From Escherichia coli O157 typing phage 9, in the sequence record KP869107: a stretch of DNA of 43,991 bases; one strand, given 5' to 3'. The notes beneath the pieces are model-generated. The model worked only from the letters and a program-made list of their open reading frames with translations, had not been told where the DNA came from and ran no database searches. Made by a program: the position numbers and the translations under genes. Position 1 is the first letter of the stretch; each line of letters begins with the position of its first letter. Below are positions 1-43,991 of the stretch, one piece after another.

Positions 1-270
1 ACAAATTTGCCTAATTGCCCTGGCCCACCAAGAGGAACAAAGTTATTCATCACGGCGTTGTTTGCGCCGGGGTCATGATGCACAGAATCCCCGTTTTTTG
101 TCCTGCTCTCCCTCTCTTGGTTAAATGACTGGTTATATGACTGGTTCTGGATCCCGTTTTTGGGATCATTCAACATCCCGTTTTTGGGATCATTCAACAT
201 CCCGTTTTTGGGTATATTCCCGTTTTCGGTAACATTACCGTTTTCGGGTTCATTGACCCCCTCTCGGTTG
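1..270. repeat. Direct repeat, copy 1 (matches 39093-39374 except one 12-bp unit)
   Basis: Read directly: acaaatttgcctaattgccctggcc... recurs at 39093; copy 1 has 2 units of atgactggtt(a/c)t, copy 2 has 3. Confidence 0.95.
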
Positions 271-31047: not shown

Positions 31048-31124
31048 GTGGCATTAGCTCAGTTGGACAGAGCAACCGCCTTCTAAGCGGTTGGTCGCAG
31101 GTTCGAATCCTGCATGCCACGCCA
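31048..31124 (+). tRNA. tRNA-Arg (anticodon TCT)
   Basis: Cloverleaf read by eye: acceptor gtggcat/atgccac, D-loop tagctcagttgg, anticodon loop cttctaa, T-loop ggttcgaatcc, 3' CCA. Confidence 0.8.
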
Positions 31125-33901: not shown

Positions 33902-33927
33902 AAAATAAAGCCGCCATAGTTGGCGGC
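33902..33927 (-). terminator. Rho-independent terminator between the early/middle genes and the late (terminase) operon
   Basis: gccgcca-tagt-tggcggc with T-rich tract on the minus strand. Confidence 0.5.
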
Positions 33928-33976: not shown

Positions 33977-34315
33977 TCACACTATTAATTTCGTTTCATG
34001 CCAGCCTTTAGTCACCCAGCATTGCGAGTCACCATTACACGGGCATGAATTAACTGGAACTCTCTCGCCGCACTTACCGCAACGTTTTCTGCTGATCGAT
34101 TTTATACGCCCGTGCACGCGTGCATCATCCTGGCGGATCAGTAACGCTATATACTCACCAAATTCGTAAGGCGCACGCCCGGGGCGACGCGTAGCACAGT
34201 TACGCTCCAGCATTTCAATTTCCTGAGCATCAAGCACAATTTCCAGCTTACGCACACCAGATGCAGCTTGTCTGGCTCTCTGAGCGGCTTTGCGCTCTGC
34301 TGCTGATTTAGCCAT
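33977..34315 (-). CDS. Small protein with RHH-like N-terminus and C-terminal Cys cluster (candidate regulator)
   Basis: ATG at 34315 with AAGGT RBS; RKLEIVLDAQEIEMLER (strand-helix pattern) and CGKCGERVPVNSCPC. Confidence 0.4.
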   Translation of the reverse strand: MAKSAAERKAAQRARQAASGVRKLEIVLDAQEIEMLERNCATRRPGRAPYEFGEYIALLIRQDDARVHGRIKSISRKRCGKCGERVPVNSCPCNGDSQCWVTKGWHETKLIV

Positions 34316-34589
34316 CAATATTTACCTTTATCGCGTATACCTTTACCGGTTTATCGCCGAAGTGCGGATGTGTGATTGTCTTGATTTCATATCCGTCATA
34401 CGGAACATCAATTCTACGGCTGGAATCGTCGCGCTTCGGATATCCCTTTGTGATAATCAGGCGGTCATACTCCCGGAACATAATTCGCTTATTCCAGTAG
34501 TCATTACACAGGCGATACTCTTCCGTTTTCTCTCCGCGAATCATGGCATCGAAGTATTCACCTTTGACGGCAAGTTGCAGGTTAGCCAC
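34308..34589 (-). CDS. ASCH-like domain protein
   Basis: 93 aa; AVKGEYFDAMIRGEKTEEYR...LIITKGY pattern; GTG start with GGAGG RBS. Confidence 0.45.
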   Translation of the reverse strand: MANLQLAVKGEYFDAMIRGEKTEEYRLCNDYWNKRIMFREYDRLIITKGYPKRDDSSRRIDVPYDGYEIKTITHPHFGDKPVKVYAIKVNIDG

Positions 34590-35283
34590 GGTTAACCTCC
34601 AGTTGTGGTGCTGCTTCTATAGCAGCCCTGTAACCAGCAGCATGACCGCGAAAGTTAGCAATCTCTGATAGCCACGCTTTAATCATGGCCTGAGTTGGCT
34701 CCTTCGGCACCATAACCCAACTATCCGGAGTTCCCGGAGAGTTGCCAGCCAGTCTACGCAACACAGCCTTAACCGCCTCAATACGGTCATCATCAACTTT
34801 TTCTACAATATTGGAATTTAAATACTTCGAAGCCTTGCTATGCCAATCGCTGGTTTTAGGGTCTTGTCCATCCATCAAACGCCAAGCTTCAGCGATTAAC
34901 TCATAGCCAGTAACAGTGGCTTCCTGCGCATCACCAATCAGTTGTGTGATCTCTCTTTCAAGCATGCTTAGAGCGTTAGGCATTGGTTTTTCTTCAGGTA
35001 CTACTGGCACCGGAGGGGCGGCATAAACAGGAATAACGTCCGCTTGCTCTTTATTGCTTTCATCCGTTAAAGCCCAGAATAATTTCCCGGCCGGATGTTT
35101 GAAAATATAAGCAACTGGCTCTGCTTCCAGCGATGCCAGCGTAATTTCGGCCAGCTTGAGGTGAATAACCGCCGCATCAGAAGCGCCCGGGACTCTTTCC
35201 ACCGCACCGCGAAGAACCTCAATATTCTTCTTAGCCTGCTCAATCAACTGCTCTTTGGTGAACTCTTTGGTAATAGTGGTCAT
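34582..35283 (-). CDS. Hypothetical protein
   Basis: 233 aa ORF, ATG start; no family recognised. Confidence 0.45.
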   Translation of the reverse strand: MTTITKEFTKEQLIEQAKKNIEVLRGAVERVPGASDAAVIHLKLAEITLASLEAEPVAYIFKHPAGKLFWALTDESNKEQADVIPVYAAPPVPVVPEEKPMPNALSMLEREITQLIGDAQEATVTGYELIAEAWRLMDGQDPKTSDWHSKASKYLNSNIVEKVDDDRIEAVKAVLRRLAGNSPGTPDSWVMVPKEPTQAMIKAWLSEIANFRGHAAGYRAAIEAAPQLEVNRG

Positions 35284-35488
35284 TTATTAATCCTCAAAAC
35301 TTTATGCCCGGGCGCAAAAGCACGCGTTTTGTCTTTGCTTATTCGCCAGCCATCCTTACGTGCCTCTTTTGCACAGCCAGCCCATGACGTACCGATATAC
35401 TCACCGAAGTCTGGCGTTTGATATTTACCATTTGTACACTGGCGACAATCACAGTAGAGATGCATGGTGTAACTTGCGGCAATAGCCA
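35280..35488 (-). CDS. Small Cys-rich hypothetical protein (69 aa)
   Basis: ATG at 35488 with AAGGAG RBS; CDCRQC...C cluster. Confidence 0.45.
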
Positions 35489-35490
35489 TA

Positions 35491-35682
35491 TCAGTCTCCT
35501 TTAGCGCGCAGGTGGTTTTTCCAGCGGTTTTGCGCCGCGCTGCGCTTATCTTTGATTCCCTCTCTGGCAATTCCAGAATATAAGTACAACACCACACGGC
35601 GATTGCTAACTCTCAACCACTGGCTGGGATAGCAACGTCTGTATACACGGGAAATAAGCATCTTTGCTTTACGGTTTTTCAT
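35491..35682 (-). CDS. Arginine-rich micro-protein (63 aa), paralogue of the upstream ORF
   Basis: MKNRKAKMLISRVYRR...; start overlaps the stop of the previous ORF (ATGA). Confidence 0.35.
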   Translation of the reverse strand: MKNRKAKMLISRVYRRCYPSQWLRVSNRRVVLYLYSGIAREGIKDKRSAAQNRWKNHLRAKGD

Positions 35683-35861
35683 CTTACTGCGTACCCTTTC
35701 TTCCGCCTGTTCTGTGACGCGCTGGGCTTTTTGCAACAACTGTGCCCCATCACCCCGCAACACCCCGTCAACCTCACTCGTCTGTTACTAATCCTCAACC
35801 AGCGCCAGACCCCAACACCGTTTCTGCGAGCTAACAGAATTTTTGCCTTACGGTTTTTCAT
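35679..35861 (-). CDS. Arginine-rich micro-protein (60 aa)
   Basis: MKNRKAKILLARRNGVGVWRWLRISNRRV...; start overlaps the stop of the previous ORF (ATGA). Confidence 0.35.
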   Translation of the reverse strand: MKNRKAKILLARRNGVGVWRWLRISNRRVRLTGCCGVMGHSCCKKPSASQNRRKKGYAVR

Positions 35862-35953
35862 CGTTTTGCTCTCCTGCGTTTCTTTGCTTCGCGTCGTGCA
35901 GCCGCAATACCGGTATGGCGGCGCTTTGGTGCAGGGATGATGTTGTCAGCCAT
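35858..35953 (-). CDS. Arginine-rich micro-ORF (31 aa)
   Basis: MADNIIPAPKRRHTGIAAARREAKKRRRAKR; stop overlaps the next ATG; weak RBS. Confidence 0.2.
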   Translation of the reverse strand: MADNIIPAPKRRHTGIAAARREAKKRRRAKR

Positions 35954-36033
35954 CAGGACATGCGGCTTTGCAATTAGCGCAGAAGCCCAAAATCGAGTCG
36001 GATACGGTAACAAGCCGATACATGCCACACGCA

Positions 36034-36732
36034 TTACTCACCTCCTTTGATGCGAATGCCAGCGGCGCGTGGCACATTAACTTCCACGATGCGCACAGTT
36101 GGTTTGTACATCTCAATCGCTGTCAGCCAGTCAGCGCCAGTCATGCGCTTTTCTGCATCGCCATTAGTCCACTTAACCGGTACACCAATAGCCTTCATCG
36201 CGATTTCTATTTCCCCGGCAATGGCGCTTTTTCCGCAACCAGTAAAACCAGAAACAACGACAAGAACTTCACCTTTGGCTGGCTTTATTTCCCGTGCTTC
36301 CAGTTCAGCAATACGCTTACTCCCATCCGAGATAACACCTTCGTAATACTCGCGTTGCTCGTTGAGTTTTGATTTTGCTTCCTCAAGCTCAACACGCAGT
36401 TTCCCTACCGTTAGCGCAATATCCTCGTTCTCCTGGTCACGGCGTTTGATGTATTGCTGGTTTCTTTCCTGTTCATCCAGCAGTGCCAGCACGGTAGCCG
36501 GGTTAGCCTCTGCTATGAATTCAGCGTTTGCATAAGCCTGAGCATCTGATTCAATCAGGCAGTTAACATGACATTCCGCAATCACACCACCGGGTTCTCC
36601 TTTCCATTTTTGGCAAACAAAAACTCCTGTTAAATTGCCGTGCTGGTTAACAGATGTATGCCCTACGATGTAGCTTCCTTTAGTTGCTTTCTCTGCCTTT
36701 TCACGCAGTGCCTGATAGTTAATTTGGGTCAC
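36034..36732 (-). CDS. Hypothetical protein (possibly Ead/Ea22-like, coiled-coil)
   Basis: 232 aa; GTG start with GGAGGA RBS; central coiled-coil-like region. Confidence 0.4.
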   Translation of the reverse strand: MTQINYQALREKAEKATKGSYIVGHTSVNQHGNLTGVFVCQKWKGEPGGVIAECHVNCLIESDAQAYANAEFIAEANPATVLALLDEQERNQQYIKRRDQENEDIALTVGKLRVELEEAKSKLNEQREYYEGVISDGSKRIAELEAREIKPAKGEVLVVVSGFTGCGKSAIAGEIEIAMKAIGVPVKWTNGDAEKRMTGADWLTAIEMYKPTVRIVEVNVPRAAGIRIKGGE

Positions 36733-36938
36733 TCTTCATCCTCCAAGTCGGCAACGGCGTCCATCACATCAGAACCGCGAATAACCTCAAAAGCACGGCA
36801 GGCCATTTGAAATACCAGTTGCTCTTGCGGATGCGGTGATTCCCAATATTTGAATCCAGGGCGATGCGCGTACCCCATCATTGAATAAAAATCACCAGCA
36901 AGCTTAATCGCGGCATCAACAAGCTCTCTGTTAGTCAT
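36729..36938 (-). CDS. Hypothetical small protein
   Basis: ATG at 36938 (track start 36986 would overlap the upstream gene); stop overlaps the next start (GTGA). Confidence 0.35.
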   Translation of the reverse strand: MTNRELVDAAIKLAGDFYSMMGYAHRPGFKYWESPHPQEQLVFQMACRAFEVIRGSDVMDAVADLEDEE

Positions 36939-36949
36939 TCTTTTTCCGC

Positions 36950-37525
36950 TCACTGGTTGCCTCCTTTGCGAATCTGTTCCGCCCATTCTTCTAGGGATTT
37001 CTCCGCATATTCACCGGACAGGCCATCAATCGGGTGTGGTTCATTAGCCAACTCTTCTTTCGCTGACAGAATCATGCGTGTAACGTCGAAAACTTCACGT
37101 AAAGACTTATTGATAAATCCGTGATTGAAAGCAGCAGCAAGACGGCTTGCGGTATAGTTAATCCCCTCGTTGCGTGCTTCCGCACGAATTTCAGCCAGGA
37201 AAGCATCGGTGGCTGGAATGGGCTTTTGTGGTGATATAGCAATGCGAATTGTCTCAAGGTCTGGATCTGTTTCCGCTGCTGGCACCTTGATATAACCCAT
37301 CTGCACCCCATTCATGATGAACCTGCGACGGTCATCACATATCGCCTTCAGCCCCGCATTCTCCGCCGCCATCGCATTAGCACGCACCAGTTGCACTTCC
37401 AGTTGCGTTGCCAAATCGCTGATCAGCTTTGCCACACTACGCATATCAACGGCACCACATTCTGCTTTCAGTTCCGAAGCCATCTCATGCCCGGCGGAAA
37501 CTAACCCTTTGATATTACTTTCCAT
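36950..37525 (-). CDS. Hypothetical protein
   Basis: 191 aa ORF, ATG start. Confidence 0.4.
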   Translation of the reverse strand: MESNIKGLVSAGHEMASELKAECGAVDMRSVAKLISDLATQLEVQLVRANAMAAENAGLKAICDDRRRFIMNGVQMGYIKVPAAETDPDLETIRIAISPQKPIPATDAFLAEIRAEARNEGINYTASRLAAAFNHGFINKSLREVFDVTRMILSAKEELANEPHPIDGLSGEYAEKSLEEWAEQIRKGGNQ

Positions 37526-37586
37526 CTTTACCCTCGCTTATCCACATAACTTATTGATTACATTGATAACTAAAAAGATCGTCGAT

Positions 37587-37931
37587 TCAGAACTCTTCGA
37601 TATTCCAGCCACCACCTGCTTTCTTTGGTTTAACCGTTACCCCGATGATTCGGAACGGATACTGATCTGCGGCGACTTTGGTTTTCACCCTGGCGTCGTC
37701 GGTCCAGAAACCTTTCACTTCGTGCAGTTCCATCTCTCCGGTGGCGAGCATCACAGCGAAATCGGGCGTATAAAACGTGTTGTCAGCCAGCCGCAGCTTG
37801 ATACCCTCGAACCGATACCAGGCGACTTCCCCTGCACGTTTACGCTGCTCAAGGTGCTGGCAATACGCAGATTCTGTTTTGTTCATCTGGCCTGTTTTGA
37901 GTCGACCAAGAGCCTGTATCTGTTTTCTCAT
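37587..37931 (-). CDS. DUF1064-like phage protein
   Basis: 114 aa; pattern EVAWYRFEGIKLRLADNTFYTPDFAV...HEVKG recalled as DUF1064, common in lambdoid early regions. Confidence 0.5.
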   Translation of the reverse strand: MRKQIQALGRLKTGQMNKTESAYCQHLEQRKRAGEVAWYRFEGIKLRLADNTFYTPDFAVMLATGEMELHEVKGFWTDDARVKTKVAADQYPFRIIGVTVKPKKAGGGWNIEEF

Positions 37932-37934
37932 GAT

Positions 37935-38011
37935 TTACCTCTAAGGTAATTAAAAACCACATAAGACACGAAATCAATAGATCTAAGAATATTTTGTTAC
38001 CCATTAGGTAA
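37935..38011. promoter_or_regulatory. Two perfect TTACC-N5-GGTAA sites between the P-like and DUF1064 genes
   Basis: 37935-37949 TTACCtctaaGGTAA; 37997-38011 TTACCcattaGGTAA. Confidence 0.45.
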
Positions 38012-38048
38012 CTATTGAGGCGTAAAAAAATGCGCTATCGCGCTGGTA

Positions 38049-38849
38049 TTACTTGATAAATCCTGCTGCCTTTCCTCGCCTGTATTCCTCCATCAGCCAC
38101 TGCGCCGGTGTTATTCCCCCCAGGGTGGCGGCGTTAGGCATGCACCCGAAACTTCGCCCTGGTGGATGGTAAACATCTCTCCCTGTGTCCGGAGGCGTAC
38201 TCATGGGTTCTGGCTTTGCCTGTATGCTGATCACCGGATCGGGTATCTGCTGTCCGGAAGCCACCTTTTTCGCCCAATCATCGAGCAGCCTGCGCGCGTG
38301 TTTCTCAACCTCAATCTCGCTAAGCTGGCGCTGATACATTGCACGGCGGGTATCACATACGACCCAGTACATAACCGGATGCCGCCACGGGAATCTTTCG
38401 GGACCACCAGGATATAAACTTTTTTCCTTGCTGTACCGGTGAAACTCCGCCATCACATCGTCAATGGTGACGCCAAGAACCATCTTGCTGTCTTTACACC
38501 ACTTGATGAATTGCCCTGGCGACGGCCAGAACGGAGACTCACTGGCGCGGGCGTGGCGCATACCAGCAGAAACCTGTTCACGGGTTCGGATCCCCCCTTC
38601 GGCAAACGCAGCAATCCACTGCTGTTTTGCAGCAACTTCCTGCTCTGGCGTCTTCAGGTTGGTTACCACTGCCGCCGGAAACAGTTGTTTCAGCTGTTTG
38701 AAAAGGGCATCAACAAGCCTCTCTGCTGACATGTTCACCACGTTGTCATTGTTGGTGTACTGATGCTCATAACCTGACATGCGAGAAAGGGCTTCTCCGT
38801 CACGGTTTTGTATCGCGGTAAAAACGTTGTTCACAAGAAATCCTCCCAT
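38049..38849 (-). CDS. Replication protein P-like (helicase loader)
   Basis: 266 aa; segment GIRTREQVSAGMRHARASESPFWPSPGQFIKWCKD aligns by eye with lambda P (GITTMEQVNAGMRVARRQNRPFLPSPGQFVAWCRE). Confidence 0.7.
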   Translation of the reverse strand: MGGFLVNNVFTAIQNRDGEALSRMSGYEHQYTNNDNVVNMSAERLVDALFKQLKQLFPAAVVTNLKTPEQEVAAKQQWIAAFAEGGIRTREQVSAGMRHARASESPFWPSPGQFIKWCKDSKMVLGVTIDDVMAEFHRYSKEKSLYPGGPERFPWRHPVMYWVVCDTRRAMYQRQLSEIEVEKHARRLLDDWAKKVASGQQIPDPVISIQAKPEPMSTPPDTGRDVYHPPGRSFGCMPNAATLGGITPAQWLMEEYRRGKAAGFIK

Positions 38850-39374
38850 GCTTCAGGGCTGTTCCAGTGCGGAACGTTGTTATCAGGTAATGTTGATTGC
38901 TTCTGTCTGCTAATCTGCAGCCGCCTTGCCAGCTTCTGCTCCCACTGTGCCTGATGGTATGCCTTACCCTCAGCCATCCAGTAAATTCTGAACTCTGCAA
39001 GTTCCTGTGCCGTTGGCAGACTGTCCAGGTAGATCCCCTGCAATGAGCTTTTCCGAAGAAAGTCATCTGATGGCTGCCATTGTTCATGCATGACAAATTT
39101 GCCTAATTGCCCTGGCCCACCAAGAGGAACAAAGTTATTCATCACGGCGTTGTTTGCGCCGGGGTCATGATGCACAGAATCCCCGTTTTTTGTCCTGCTC
39201 TCCCTCTCTTGGTTAAATGACTGGTTATATGACTGGTTATATGACTGGTTCTGGATCCCGTTTTTGGGATCATTCAACATCCCGTTTTTGGGATCATTCA
39301 ACATCCCGTTTTTGGGTATATTCCCGTTTTCGGTAACATTACCGTTTTCGGGTTCATTGACCCCCTCTCGGTTG
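38831..39374 (-). CDS. Replication initiator O-like, C-terminal part plus iteron-encoded linker; N-terminus lost in the N run
   Basis: Minus-strand frame open from the N run through the iterons (MLNDPKNG repeats, NQSY repeats) to a stop at 38831; overlaps the P-like start. Confidence 0.6.
39093..39374. repeat. Direct repeat, copy 2 (truncated by N run at 39375)
   Basis: Identical to 1-270 apart from an extra 12-bp tandem unit at 39229-39240. Confidence 0.95.
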
Positions 39375-39474
39375 NNNNNNNNNNNNNNNNNNNNNNNNNN
39401 NNNNNNNNNNNNNNNNNNNNNNNNNNNNNNNNNNNNNNNNNNNNNNNNNNNNNNNNNNNNNNNNNNNNNNNNNN
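39375..39474. other. Run of 100 N (unresolved or masked sequence) at the junction between the two phage modules
   Basis: Read directly. Confidence 1.
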
Positions 39475-40077
39475 CACGGCATTCATCGCATCAAGAACCG
39501 GTGATAAATCCTCACCACCATTACCTTCTGCCTGCTGTGCTGATTGCTGAACACGGGACTGGAGATAGTTATTTTTACGGATGAGCGAAGCCACCGCGTC
39601 ACCAATTTCCGGATACATCTCCCTGATACGGGCAATCTGCTCATCAGAAATTTTTTCGTTTTCCGGTAACGGTGTGGGCTTCATACCGGCCTGGTGGATC
39701 TGAGACGTCAGCAGTTCCACCCTGCGTTTTTCTTCAGCTATCTGCCCACGAAGAAGTGCGGCTTCCTGTTCGGCCCGTTGCTTACCGGAACGTTCAGCCT
39801 CAAGGACTTCATAGGGAATGACGTGTTTACCGTCGCGGGTGAGCACCCCCTTCGCTTCCGGCTCCTTCACGTCCTGCGTCTGCTCCACACTGGCATCCGG
39901 CGTCGGTGCCACATTGTTATCGCCCGTCTGAGTCTGTGCTTCCTCATCCGCATGTTTTTCCGTGGTATCTTCCGTCACGACGTCCTGTGCGTGACTGTCA
40001 ATATCCACATCCCCAAGTCCTTCCAGCATTTTTTCCAGTTGTTCCGGGGTTTCTTCACCCGTAAATTCAAAATCCAT
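39475..40077 (-). CDS. Putative scaffolding-like protein of a P22-type head module, 3' end lost in the N run
   Basis: Acidic N-terminus and coiled-coil-like middle; located downstream of the portal as the scaffold gene is in P22-like phages. Confidence 0.35.
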
Positions 40078-40186
40078 AAATAACTCCGCATGGTCTGTTT
40101 ATCGGACAGATCCGAATGGTTGAGTAAATAAGGCTTATCGCTGCCCCCGCGAATAAGCGCACCGCTCCCGGAACGCTTACCTCCGG

Positions 40187-40216
40187 AAACAAAAAACCCC
40201 GTACGATGACGGGGTT
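40187..40216 (-). terminator. Rho-independent terminator after the P22-type portal gene
   Basis: aacccc-gtacgatgac-ggggtt with T6 on the minus strand. Confidence 0.45.
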
Positions 40217-40235
40217 CAGTTGAAGCCAGAGTTTT

Positions 40236-42336
40236 CAGAGCGACATTTCATTCATCCGCTGTTGTAACGTATACAGCATCTGTTGCTGAAGAACGTCCTG
40301 CTCCTGTTCCATATTCTGTACGCCGGTAATGATTTCTGCCGTATGTGCCTGGTTAAGCGCATNNNNNNNNNNNNNNNNNNNNNNNNNNNNNNNNNNNNNN
40401 NNNNNNNNNNNNNNNNNNNNNNNNNNNNNNNNNNNNNNNNNNNNNNNNNNNNNNNNNNNNNNNNNNNNNNNNNNNNNNNNNNNNNNNNNNNNNNNNNNNN
40501 NNNNNNNNNNNNNNNNNNNNNNNNNNNNNNNNNNNCTGCCTGTTGTTGCTGAAGTGCCTGTTGTTGTGCCGCTACTTCCTGTTCTTCCGGCGTCATTTCA
40601 TCCGGTGATTTTGGCGTCCCCAGCGCAGCACGAATACGCTCAACAAACTCCTGTTTCTGCGGCACATCCAGAAGATTAACCCACAGGTCGAGCACAACAG
40701 CCTGCACCTGAGGCGGCAGCCCCTGAATAACCTCTGACATTCTCTGTGCAAGCTGTGCCTTAAACGCCGGTGTCTGCTGAACAGGCGCCAGCGCAATATG
40801 TGTATTTAACCTTGAAATATCATTGGTCAGTTCACCATTATCACCTTCAGCATTGAGGACAATGGTCTGGCGACGCTGGCGATCATCGCGATTAATCACC
40901 ACTGCATGATTACGGCGTTTTTTCAGGTCATCGAGAAGATAAGCCAGCAACAGTCTTCCCACCTGCTGGCAGGCAAACTGGTAGTTATCGTTGATTTCCG
41001 CAAGGGTTGTGGCCCCCTGCTCCACCAGGTTACTGATAGCCACGCCTGACGTCGCACCTGAATCCTGCCCGAGAAATGCGGAATACACTCCNNNNNNNNN
41101 NNNNNNNNNNNNNNNNNNNNNNNNNNNNNNNNNNNNNNNNNNNNNNNNNNNNNNNNNNNNNNNNNNNNNNNNNNNNNNNNNNNNNNNNNNNNNNNNNNNN
41201 NNNNNNNNNNNNNNNNNNNNNNNNNNNNNNCTGCATGACCTGAAACTGCTGGCTGGCAACCTGAAAATCCTGCTCAACCCGAAAAACATCTGCGACACTT
41301 TTCTGATTTTTTCGGACCGGATTCAGTTTAATAATGCCATCCGGACGTTCGATCTGCTCCATCAGGTCGTTGTCTGACAACTGGGTGGCATCCTCGTCCA
41401 TAATCACGCGTTTGGCCTGAAGCAACCAGGTCAGCTTGATACGACGAAAATTCACCTCATCCTGTGCCGGAATGGCGCGGGAAATTAGCCCGTATGGCTC
41501 CCCGGTTTTATCCTTTCGGTATCCCCAGAAAGGAACCAGCGGAAACATCCCCTGCGGAGCACTACAGGGGCGATCCACAATAAAGTGTGGCCCGACAAAC
41601 CAGGCTTCACGAATACGGCTTACCCGCCCGACTTTCACCTGAACCCGCCCGGATGCCACAGCTACCGCCTGCATCAGATTATTTTTATCAAAGGCCACCA
41701 CCCGTCCATTACTGAGTTCAATCACCGGAAGACGCTCGAATGTACGGTAATAAACCACCTGAAGCAGCACACGACGGCGTTCACGCTGAAGCCATTCGTT
41801 CTGCTGTCGATCCCATGACTGATACTCTTCCCATGCACTCATCAACGGACTGGGCTGGCCTTCAGTAACCGTGGTATCGACAAAACCACGCCAGTCATCA
41901 ATGGCATAATCGATAACCTGAGCCATTCCCGGGAATGTAGCTTTTGCCTCATCGGTATCCATCCAGCGGCGACGCATCAGCCATCGGCAGTCACTTAAAT
42001 CAGCCTCCCGGCTCAGCCAGTCCCAGAAAACCTCATTCCGGCTGACAGTAGACACCTTAAATTCAGGCCCGAACGGATCGCTGTTTCGTCTGACCTCCAC
42101 CCAACTGAGGCCCGCCTTGATTTGTTCCGCATAGGCATCAGAGCGGGCTTTATTCATATTGCCAAGGCGGCATGCATCGGCAAATTCAGCATTAATAGCT
42201 TCAGCCAGTTTTTCAGTTTCATCATCTGGCTCGTCTGACATCACCACCAGATCAGTCCGTGTTTTGGCCTCCATTCCCAGAACGCCATCGACGGTAGGCG
42301 CGATGAGGTTATGGATAGTCATCGGCTGACCGCGAT
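40236..42336 (-). CDS. Portal protein, P22-type, interrupted by N runs (5' end inside the N run at 42337-42558)
   Basis: Long portal-sized reading frame with a Gln-rich C-terminal helical region (QEVAAQQQALQQQQA); true C-terminal frame ...QQRMNEMSL ends at 40236. Confidence 0.55.
40363..40535. other. Run of 173 N inside the portal gene
   Basis: Read directly. Confidence 1.
41092..41230. other. Run of 139 N inside the portal gene
   Basis: Read directly. Confidence 1.
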
Positions 42337-42558
42337 NNNNNNNNNNNNNNNNNNNNNNNNNNNNNNNNNNNNNNNNNNNNNNNNNNNNNNNNNNNNNNNN
42401 NNNNNNNNNNNNNNNNNNNNNNNNNNNNNNNNNNNNNNNNNNNNNNNNNNNNNNNNNNNNNNNNNNNNNNNNNNNNNNNNNNNNNNNNNNNNNNNNNNNN
42501 NNNNNNNNNNNNNNNNNNNNNNNNNNNNNNNNNNNNNNNNNNNNNNNNNNNNNNNNNN
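42337..42558. other. Run of 222 N spanning the terminase/portal gene junction
   Basis: Read directly. Confidence 1.
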
Positions 42559-43991
42559 GAGCCATCCAGTGTGTGGTTCTGCGTTTATCCGTTTTCTGTT
42601 TTACCCTCACCGGCATTCTGGCGCGCATCTCCTGGGCAATCATGTAGCTCATGAGCTGATCATCAAAGCAGCCTTCCTGTGCATTCATGGAGCCTTTCGC
42701 GTCATAAACGTAGGTGTTCATTTCCGATAATGTGCCTGACCAGCGGATCCCTGATATTCCATTATTCAGAAGCGTTTTCATTCCTTCGGTCAGAACAGGT
42801 TTGCTCTGACGGGTTGTCAGCCAGCCAAGGCGGGGCGTATCGTCGTCATATGCCTGGTCAAGATGCTGTTCGTTGTAGATATAACGTGTCGGATAGAGTT
42901 CCCGGAGTTTCAGGATAACTGCATGTCCGTGATTATTACGCTCCGGCCCCACAAACGCGTTGTTATACATACGACAGACCTGCGAAATGAGATGAGCAAA
43001 AAGTTCAGCATCGAGATGCCCGAACCAGTGAGCCACCTGCTCGCCATTACTGCGTTTGACAACATCCAGCGATGAGCGGTCTCCGTGCTCCAGCCCTTCG
43101 GCAGTATCTGCCCCANNNNNNNNNNNNNNNNNNNNNNNNNNNNNNNNNNNNNNNNNNNNNNNNNNNNNNNNNNNNNNNNNNNNNNNNNNNNNNNNNNNNN
43201 NNNNNNNNNNNNNNNNNNNNNNNNNNNNNNNNNNNNNNNNNNNNNNNNNNNNNNNNNNNNNNNNNNNNNNNNNNNNNNNNNNNNNNNNNNNNNNNNNNNN
43301 NNNNNNNNNNNNNNNNNNNNNNNNNNNNNNNNNNNNNNNNNNNNNNNNNNNNNNNNNTGTTCATCAGTAAGCGTGATGTTCATTGCCTTCTCAACCGCAG
43401 AAAAATACGTCATTTTTTCCCGTGACAGCTTCAGCCCGCTTTCCGGCACTCTGGCGCTGTATTTAGGATCCTGCCACCAGGCGTAAAAATGGAATTTATA
43501 ATCCTGTGCCGTCAGCAATAAGCCTGATGCAGTGATCTCCTGTGCTCGGTTACTCATCTCGTAAAAATCACCACCCACGCCTTCAGCAGTGGACTCATCA
43601 AAAATAATGCATTCATCAGAGACGGCATTAAGCGTACCGGTTCGCAGTTCTTTCGCCTTAGCCGGATATTTCGCGCAAATTTTGCCGTGCTCTGAGATAT
43701 GCAGGCGCTGCACCGTACCTGAACGGAATGAGGTTGCCACCTGGATACTCGAGCCGTGACCAAACAGGATATAGCCACCGCTGGCACCGCTACGACGTTC
43801 AACGATGGTGAATGAGGCTCTCAGCCAGTCAGGGAGATGATCAAACGGTACAGCAATTTTTGTGCGGAAAATTTCACTGGCAGCCTGTTTATCCTGAGCG
43901 ACGATCCCGCATTTGAGATGCGGAATGAATAATGCCTGGTCGAGAAGATAAATATCAATGGCTGTGGAAAATCCCAGCTGGCGCGCTTTCA
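42559..43991 (-). CDS. Terminase large subunit, P22-type; N-terminus beyond the window end, interrupted by an N run
   Basis: Minus-strand frame from the window end: ...ILFGHGSSIQVATSFRSGTVQRLHISEHGKICAKYPAKAKELRTGTLNAVSDECIIFDESTAEG...; after the gap ...VAHWFGHLDAELF...DDQLMSYMIAQEMRARMP (nuclease-domain-like). Confidence 0.55.
43116..43357. other. Run of 242 N inside the terminase gene
   Basis: Read directly. Confidence 1.

Follow-up and report, generated by a model that had tools for sequence, protein, structure and literature searches.

Four small, probably coupled genes behind the Ea22-like gene in the phiV10 sequence of Escherichia coli O157 typing phage 9

The p49 to p52 genes and their operon

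The DNA considered here is a stretch of 43,991 nucleotides from Escherichia coli O157 typing phage 9 (sequence record KP869107), analysed over its whole length and referred to as the window, and its subject is a run of four small genes on the minus strand that follow a gene for an Ead/Ea22-like protein (Table 1). The minus strand of the window from 35200 to 36100 is 100% identical to positions 36981-37881 of phiV10 (DQ126339/NC_007804), an epsilon15-like Uetakevirus, and the four genes are the coding sequences PhiV10p49 to PhiV10p52 of the phiV10 GenBank record, called p49, p50, p51 and p52 below. Their exact protein products occur in public databases on 31 to 988 contigs under the labels "hypothetical protein" or "prophage protein". 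We take p49-p52 to be genuine protein-coding genes within a ten-gene early operon, p46-p55, which would supply small accessory proteins of the Ea22 module, and give this reading a probability of about 0.85.

A preliminary description of this DNA, drawn from the letters of the sequence, had reported a chain of four successive minus-strand open reading frames (ORFs) of 31, 60, 63 and 69 amino acids, joined by ATGA twice and then by TGA-ATG with an AAGGAG ribosome-binding site. The last three ORFs and the junctions are there as described; the first ORF is longer, as set out below, and the chain is not limited to four genes, as ten genes, p46-p55, follow one another with gaps of -4, -4, -1, -4, -4, +1, -4, -8 and -8 nucleotides. 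Those around p49-p52 are -1, -4, -4, +1 and -4 nucleotides, the junctions being TAATG for p48/p49, ATGA for both p49/p50 and p50/p51, and TGA-T-ATG for p51/p52, after which the TGA of p52 overlaps the ATG of p53. The starts of the four genes are preceded by GGAGG, AGGAG, GAAAGG and AAGGAG, Shine-Dalgarno sequences that lie within the upstream ORFs. A site scan saw no promoter-like or minus-strand terminator-like site inside 35280-36034, and the intrinsic-terminator-like hairpin that closes the operon comes immediately downstream of p55, at a place annotated in the phiV10 record as a putative rho-independent terminator. The upstream ATGA and downstream TGA-N-ATG junctions are conserved in most related loci, and because these stop/start overlaps are conserved, the genes are probably expressed by translational coupling, with ribosomes moving from ORF to ORF through the overlapping codons and the internal Shine-Dalgarno sequences.

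The location had been called nin-like, a reasonable label since the module sits downstream of replication gene P and a DUF1064 gene and upstream of the late region. The extreme basicity noted for the three upstream ORFs was borne out as well, p49, p50 and p51 having isoelectric points (pI) of 12.0, 11.9 and 11.4 and net charges of +13, +18 and +15, respectively.

Table 1. Features of the p49-p52 region and its operon, in window coordinates
Feature	Positions	Strand	Description
PhiV10p48	36034..36732	minus	Ead/Ea22-like protein, 232 amino acids; Pfam PF13935, E=4e-41; annotated in NC_007804; upstream neighbour, anchors the module
Predicted mRNA hairpin	36020..36077	minus	13 bp; encloses the AAGGAGG ribosome-binding site and the p49 start codon; minimum free energy -29 kcal/mol in a 71-nucleotide window
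PhiV10p49	35858..36034	minus	58 amino acids; phrog_13831, E=6.9e-43 over 1-58/58
PhiV10p50	35679..35861	minus	60 amino acids; phrog_1380, E=6e-29 over 1-60/62; subtype B, non-terminal copy; ends in SQNRRKKGYAVR and stop; ATGA at both ends
PhiV10p51	35491..35682	minus	63 amino acids from ATG; phrog_1380, E=1.4e-32 over 1-62/62; subtype A, terminal copy; ends in AAQNRWKNHLRAKGD and stop
AAGGAG ribosome-binding site of p52	35496..35501	minus	within the last p51 codons (K-G-D), six nucleotides before the p52 ATG
PhiV10p52	35280..35489	minus	69 amino acids; phrog_926, E=4.5e-37 over 1-69/69; conserved CxCxxC...H motif
PhiV10p53	34582..35283	minus	mosaic hypothetical protein, 233 amino acids; next in the coupled chain after p52
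Intrinsic-terminator-like hairpin	33910..33927	minus	7-bp stem with 6 GC pairs, T tract; closes the p46-p55 operon

Protein families

Although no family had been recognised at first, all four proteins match PHROG families (E<=6e-29), and the likeness of p50 and p51 is already on the GenBank record, which annotates p51 as "similar to VT2-Sap08 ... and PhiV10p50". The MKNRKAK(I/M)L and WLR(I/V)SNRRV blocks seen in the 60- and 63-residue ORFs are indeed shared (47% identity, E=1e-11 by BLASTP). The proposal that three of the ORFs are paralogues holds in part: p50 and p51 are diverged paralogues in the same family, PHROG 1380, and p49 is unrelated to them, an hhalign comparison of the family profile with p49 giving a probability of 0.2% over 1 aligned column, with the proteins placed in separate PHROGs. 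The product of p52 belongs to a family of its own, PHROG 926, unrelated to p49 or to p50/p51.

Proteins of PHROG 1380 are about 60 amino acids long, with a pI of 11-12 and the signature M-K-N-R-K-A-K-x-L ... (R/K)-(I/V)-S-N-R-R ... S-A-A-Q-N-R-W-K-N-H. Across the family alignment, the N-terminus reads M-(K/N)-N-R-K-A-(K/R)-x-L, a near-invariant (I/V)-S-N-(R/H) turn follows, and the C-terminal S-A-A-Q-N-R-W-K-N-H is conserved, with a highly variable centre between these conserved ends. Both p50 and p51 carry M-K-N-R-K-A-K, S-N-(R/H) and S-A-A-Q-N-R (as S-A-S-Q-N-R in p50). Where S-A-A-Q-N-R-W-K-N-H is expected, p50 has S-A-S-Q-N-R-R-K-K-G, and the same is seen in all non-terminal copies.

The start of p51 has been annotated in two ways. 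In the GenBank/RefSeq phiV10 records, it is a GTG at 35763, 27 codons upstream, which gives a protein of 90 amino acids and an overlap of 84 nucleotides with p50; the Prokaryotic Genome Annotation Pipeline (PGAP) starts it at the ATG, for 63 amino acids. Members of PHROG 1380 start at MKNRKAK and the upstream open frame varies in length between loci, so that the 90-residue GTG start is probably wrong. A frameshift fusion of p50 and p51 by way of the 90-residue frame was rejected because the open frame upstream of p51 differs in length among loci. Two other candidates were also rejected: a type I toxin, as the proteins are hydrophilic (grand average of hydropathy -0.7 to -1.0), and an HNH or beta-beta-alpha-metal nuclease, as PHROG 1380 has no invariant His in its strands, loses H57 in non-terminal copies and has no Pfam HNH match.

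The 31-residue ORF first proposed for p49 would span just the C-terminal half of the phrog_13831 profile. The conserved gene is 58 amino acids long, with a full 1-58 match in 41 homologous loci and a frame that starts with ATG or GTG, and the ATG at 35953 is internal: the ratio of nonsynonymous to synonymous variation (pN/pS) among 23 unique DNAs is 0.27 over the whole gene and 0.20 over its first 27 codons, which are thus under purifying selection, and the 933W homologue has a 7-codon, in-frame deletion that removes M28, the very codon at 35953. The N-terminal half of p49 is moderately hydrophobic and the C-terminal tail reads KRRHTGIAAARREAKKRRRAKR. The start region is predicted to fold at -17 to -33 kcal/mol in 19 variants from related loci, with differing pairing partners, and the hairpin predicted around the p49 start would be compatible with ribosome-dependent unmasking.

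In the p52 family, C13, C15 and C18 are invariant among 15 aligned sequences, C39 is not conserved, and H62 (in AP[G/N]HK) is kept in 13 of the 15, the two exceptions diverging throughout the C-terminus. The invariant cysteines and the mostly retained histidine suggest a putative CCCH zinc site. Searches of the PDB with phmmer and with a profile found nothing relevant at E<=10 between p52 and the Ea8.5 homologue 2M7A, an Ea8.5-type homeodomain/zinc-finger structure.

Coding status and selection

For comparison, every PHROG 1380 member was extracted from 80 related loci in IMG/VR. The preliminary description had named frameshifts or stops in homologous regions as what would speak against coding; of the copies from these loci and from duplicates of the phiV10 region, 117/118 were intact, which favours coding, and this count holds partly by construction as the copies were located by protein profile. 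All 62 unique copies have an uninterrupted coding frame from end to end; of the remaining five frames, three are closed in every copy, a fourth is open in 1 and the fifth in 7. The codon-substitution check that had been proposed was also run and points the same way, with purifying selection at pN/pS of 0.18-0.41 across all four genes and most of the variation at third codon positions. Within the PHROG 1380 subtypes defined below, pN/pS is 0.33 for A, 0.40 for B and 0.38 for D, and the variable sites of subtype A are distributed over the codon positions as 31/28/55, an excess at the third position. The B copies have values of 0.41 when non-terminal and 0.24 when terminal. Among the four DNA variants of p50 there are 4 variable sites, each with a synonymous third-position change. 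In p52, pN/pS is 0.18 and the variable sites are split 13/8/36 by codon position.

The residues that are invariant across PHROG 1380 (N3, K5, K7, S26, N27, G37, K46 and Q51) have a pN of 0 and a crude between-subtype pS of at least 0.68, which is saturated. Because replacement is absent at these codons while synonymous change has reached saturation, the constraint is on the protein and not on a DNA or RNA element, and the suggestion that p50 and p51 are diverged coding paralogues instead of a noncoding repeat is upheld. Rfam covariance models found no match at E<=1 in the window from 34000 to 37500.

Tandem arrays and conserved junctions

The number of PHROG 1380 copies per locus was one in 50 of the 80 IMG/VR loci, two in 29 and three in 1. 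Three subtypes recur: A, with YPSQWLRVSNRR (as in p51); B, with GVW(R/Q)W..SNRR (as in p50); and D, with ISNHK. Wherever it can be assigned, the order is D-B-A, in the combinations B-A, D-A, D-B and D-B-A, with the second copy unclassified in 2 loci, and all of the copy-to-copy junctions are ATGA (31/31). This fixed order and the uniform junctions point to old paralogues that may have been differentially lost, and not to recent duplications.

The ends of the copies also serve the gene that follows. Non-terminal copies end in SQNRRKKGYAVR and a stop, their last codons holding the ribosome-binding site of the next copy, and the terminal copy ends in NRWKNHLRTKGE and a stop, its last codons holding AAGGAG for any following gene. 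The 3' junction CTAAAGGAGnnTGAnATG (window 35487-35503) is conserved before at least six unrelated downstream genes, and the 5' junction AGGAGAGCAAAACGATG, upstream of the first PHROG 1380 copy, recurs behind differing upstream tails (both in loci L006-L085). Mosaic joints made of such conserved boundary sequences and ribosome-binding sites are typical of lambdoid phages, and the junctions on either side of the PHROG 1380 copies seem to be mosaic recombination joints that at the same time act as translation-initiation regions. The KRRRAKR tail of p49, up to its stop codon, is encoded by the upstream junction, AAACGCAGGAGAGCAAAACGATG, which also carries the ribosome-binding site for the first of the PHROG 1380 copies; the p49 tail also matches phrog_8108 and phrog_21931. 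Some of the arginine-richness of p49, along with the final residues of p50 and of p51, is thus plausibly a by-product of these conserved boundary sequences.

Distribution and synteny

Among temperate phages of enterobacteria, PHROG 1380 accompanies an Ea22-like gene, and the recurrent gene order is the Ea22-like gene, p49, one to three copies of PHROG 1380, p52 and a variable gene. In 933W, the p49-p52 homologues lie between ea22 and xis, in the exo-xis region; in a P1-like phage, the module is near recT and EaA; and in Salmonella phage Sasha, there is one copy, of type A, whose start overlaps the end of a ParB-like gene as ATGA. A tblastn search found PHROG 1380 in 143 of 50,697 phage records, often unannotated, as it also is in many Shiga toxin (Stx) phage records, and those of the 143 that were examined came from Stx-converting, P1-like, Sasha-like and phiV10-like phages. 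Phage Av-05 was the sole lytic example in any search. An exhaustive hidden Markov model search of 1.84 billion representative proteins returned 43 relatives of p50/p51 (cluster representatives) with no informative partner domain, nearly all of 53-112 amino acids, four longer ones being weak or read-through products. Where a source names its organism, this is Escherichia, Salmonella or Citrobacter.

Other collections gave little. Nothing significant was found for p49-p52 in Pfam (with single sequences and with every member of the PHROG 1380 and p52 alignments), and there was no match in NCBIfam or, at E<=1, among the PADLOC defence models; sequence and profile searches of the PDB with p49, the p50/p51 family and the p52 family found nothing meaningful. 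A scan of the K-12 Rac prophage for homologues with names such as rcbA, ralR and ydaE found none, and the PHROG 1380 alignment found nothing in the species-representative genomes. With p51 alone, the only match in those genomes was a 16-residue C-terminal fragment on a 427-nucleotide contig of Xanthomonas pisi DSM 18956 (L090), which is probably enterobacterial or phage contamination.

Predicted fold and possible functions

With an alignment of 29 sequences, AlphaFold2 predicted for PHROG 1380 a helix, a three-stranded sheet and a second helix (helix 4-13, strands 20-26, 29-34 and 39-44, helix 49-62) at a mean predicted local distance difference test (pLDDT) score of 75; with 20 sequences, the pLDDT was 56. 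Foldseek found no structural neighbour in BFVD other than an uncharacterised member of the same family, from phage Av-05. Going by helical periodicity, A50, W54 and L58 would face the sheet, and Q51, N52, K55 and N56 would form an exposed, conserved polar stripe. The candidate contact surface would be made up of this face of the C-terminal helix (Q51, N52, R53, K55 and N56), the N-terminal N-R-K-x-K and the S-N-R-R turn (S26-N27-R28-R29). Because such a surface would be rich in contact-type residues and the net charge is +15 to +18, nucleic-acid binding by these proteins is tentatively favoured, at somewhat short of even odds. Their role would then be that of dispensable accessory factors of the early phase, as with other small exo-xis or nin proteins, and it is rather doubtful that they represent a new class of small effectors in the Ea22/exo-xis module that bind nucleic acid or target the host.

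Another view of these proteins is that p50 and p51 do not bind nucleic acid but attach to an acidic surface on some protein of the host or the phage, as inhibitors in host takeover or anti-defence, with the variable central sheet setting target specificity and the tandem subtypes covering different targets. This would suit genes that reside in exo-xis and nin-like regions, early accessory stretches where small host-modulating proteins abound, a family with a very variable centre between conserved ends and at least four subtypes, up to three of which stand side by side in fixed order, and a narrow, sporadic distribution (43 representatives in 1.84 billion proteins) of the sort typical of arms-race accessory genes. 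However, there was no PADLOC match, though that library holds defence and not anti-defence models; the invariant Asn, Gln, Arg, Lys and Ser suit nucleic-acid contacts at least equally; and positive selection in the PHROG 1380 centre cannot be demonstrated because between-subtype substitutions are saturated. On balance, an inhibitor role comes second to nucleic-acid binding and seems rather unlikely, though far from negligible. It is improbable, in turn, that p51 alone is functional and p50 is a decaying duplicate kept open mainly as the carrier of the p51 translation-initiation region. The loss of W-K-N-H from the C-terminal helix of non-terminal copies, the frameshifted B-type variants P0066, P0069 and P0077, the omission of p50 by PGAP in E. 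coli TT12B and EC2 and the higher pN/pS of non-terminal B copies than of terminal ones would agree with decay, but the non-terminal value is still far below 1, the p50 variants differ by synonymous changes only, the MKNRKAK and SNRR core motifs are intact, and non-terminal copies of two to three subtypes are retained intact and in fixed order across many phages.

Least credible by a wide distance, and by now largely refuted, is the idea that the ORFs arose by chance or through faulty annotation and that the repeat acts in cis as DNA or RNA, for instance as a recombination linker, a regulatory structure or a small RNA. The boundary sequences are conserved whatever the neighbour, before the first copy as after the last, and the matches of the p49 tail to two further PHROGs fit with basic tails that are plausibly in part junction by-product; yet conservation is at the amino-acid level with synonymous change saturated at invariant codons, every full-length copy has its coding frame open while the other frames are closed in nearly all, the indel in p49 is in frame, variation is in excess at third positions, and Rfam has no match. 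For the reading of p49-p52 as genuine accessory genes, several points have to be set on the other side of the scale. The sequences of p49 and of p52 vary little (mostly >85% identity), so that their pN/pS values come from few substitutions. There are frameshifted database variants (P0083 besides the three B-type ones) and one truncated copy in locus L065, and therefore some copies do decay, if rarely. PGAP leaves out p50 in the two E. coli genomes named above, and R-K-K-G replaces the conserved W-K-N-H in non-terminal copies. The case for putative nucleic-acid binding consists of charge and of the conserved Asn, Gln, Arg, Lys and Ser. No paper in the literature mentions L0068 or PhiV10p50, the supplement of an enterohaemorrhagic E. 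coli translatome has no entry for p49-p52, and the phiV10 infection-dynamics paper holds no expression data.

Neighbouring features and the make-up of the window

The Ea22-like protein encoded by p48 has a Walker-A-like motif, GFTGCGKS, at residues 159-166 in its C-terminal third, and its matches to the APS-kinase and AAA families are weak (E 0.06-0.17); p48 may combine a small P-loop domain with the Ead/Ea22 domain. Within the phiV10 sequence, on the plus strand, positions 31048-31124 are predicted to encode a tRNA-Arg (anticodon TCT).

Window positions 1-33976 correspond to 33988-1 of the phiV10 record and 33977-39374 to 39104-33707, so that the two stretches together make one complete turn of the circular map plus an overlap of 270-282 bp with a 12-bp indel. 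The overlap ends (window 1-270 and 39093-39374) fall within the replication-initiator gene. Most of the window from about 39475, the remaining 4.5 kb, has 100% identity to the terminase-portal region of the Stx2 phages 933W and VT2-Sakai; when 39000-43991 was used as the query against Stx2 phages, 75% was covered by five aligned pieces. The window is not a simple prophage and has the look of a chimeric contig or of an assembly walk; adjacent prophages are another possibility. The replication-initiator gene also holds TGGGATCATTCAACATCCCG twice, as identical neighbouring copies at 39265-39284 and 39289-39308, 24 nucleotides apart, each followed by TTTTTGGG; these repeats were flagged by the terminator scan and look more like origin iterons.

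Comparison with known systems

The genes p49-p52, the similarity of p50 and p51 and their families are already known, and the stretch is ordinary for a temperate-phage accessory operon, since the genes are annotated, the similarity stands on the GenBank record and the PHROG families exist. PHROG 1380 includes VT2-Sap08 of VT2-Sakai and the C-terminal part of L0068 of 933W, and p50 and p51 are members that share its length, motifs and post-Ea22-like position, with two copies in phiV10 (subtypes B and A) in contrast to one B-type copy in 933W. Likewise, p49 in PHROG 13831 and p52 in PHROG 926 (which includes VT2-Sap07 and L0067 of 933W) are members with full-length matches and the same synteny. 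The annotation can be improved in three places, in that p49 has 58 amino acids and not 31, p51 probably starts at the ATG for 63 and not at the GTG for 90, and p50, frequently left out by PGAP, is a real gene. What is added here is the view of PHROG 1380 as a selected, ordered tandem family of mini-proteins that is tied to Ea22 and has no structural relatives, and a defined function for the p49-p52 proteins would be of some interest to the field.

The N proteins of lambda and P22, RNA-binding peptides of the arginine-rich-motif type, offer a resemblance in their very basic short helices with Arg, Lys, Gln and a Trp, and in early expression in lambdoid-type phages. It goes no further than likeness: no homology was detected, N is disordered whereas PHROG 1380 is predicted to be folded with a three-stranded sheet, and no boxB-like partner was identified. 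The lambda ninA-ninH genes are small, tightly packed, overlapping ORFs and lie, like the phiV10 module, between the replication genes and the late regulator, but the module has no Pfam matches to Nin families and is instead homologous to early-left (exo-xis) genes of Stx phages.

The p49-p52 homologues of 933W are situated within the exo-xis region itself. The small exo-xis proteins of lambda and Stx phages (Orf60a, Orf63, Orf61, Orf73, Ea8.5 and Orf55) are early, dispensable, 55-95 amino acids long and encoded around ea22, and for some of them, binding to DNA or RNA polymerase and an influence on the choice between lysis and lysogeny have been predicted or shown (PMC8614690, PMC4195576). The same papers cover orf60a, orf63, orf61, orf73, ea22 and ea8.5 and do not treat the genes downstream of ea22 (PMC8614690, PMC4195576); in phage 24B, ea22 mRNA reaches high levels upon infection and upon induction (PMC4195576). 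The two sets of proteins share no sequence similarity (by Pfam, which has models for several of the exo-xis proteins, and by PDB including 2M7A), the predicted helix-sheet-helix of PHROG 1380 is unlike the all-helical Orf63 and Orf61, and the phiV10 module belongs to an early-right, nin-like operon, whereas the exo-xis proteins are encoded in the pL operon.

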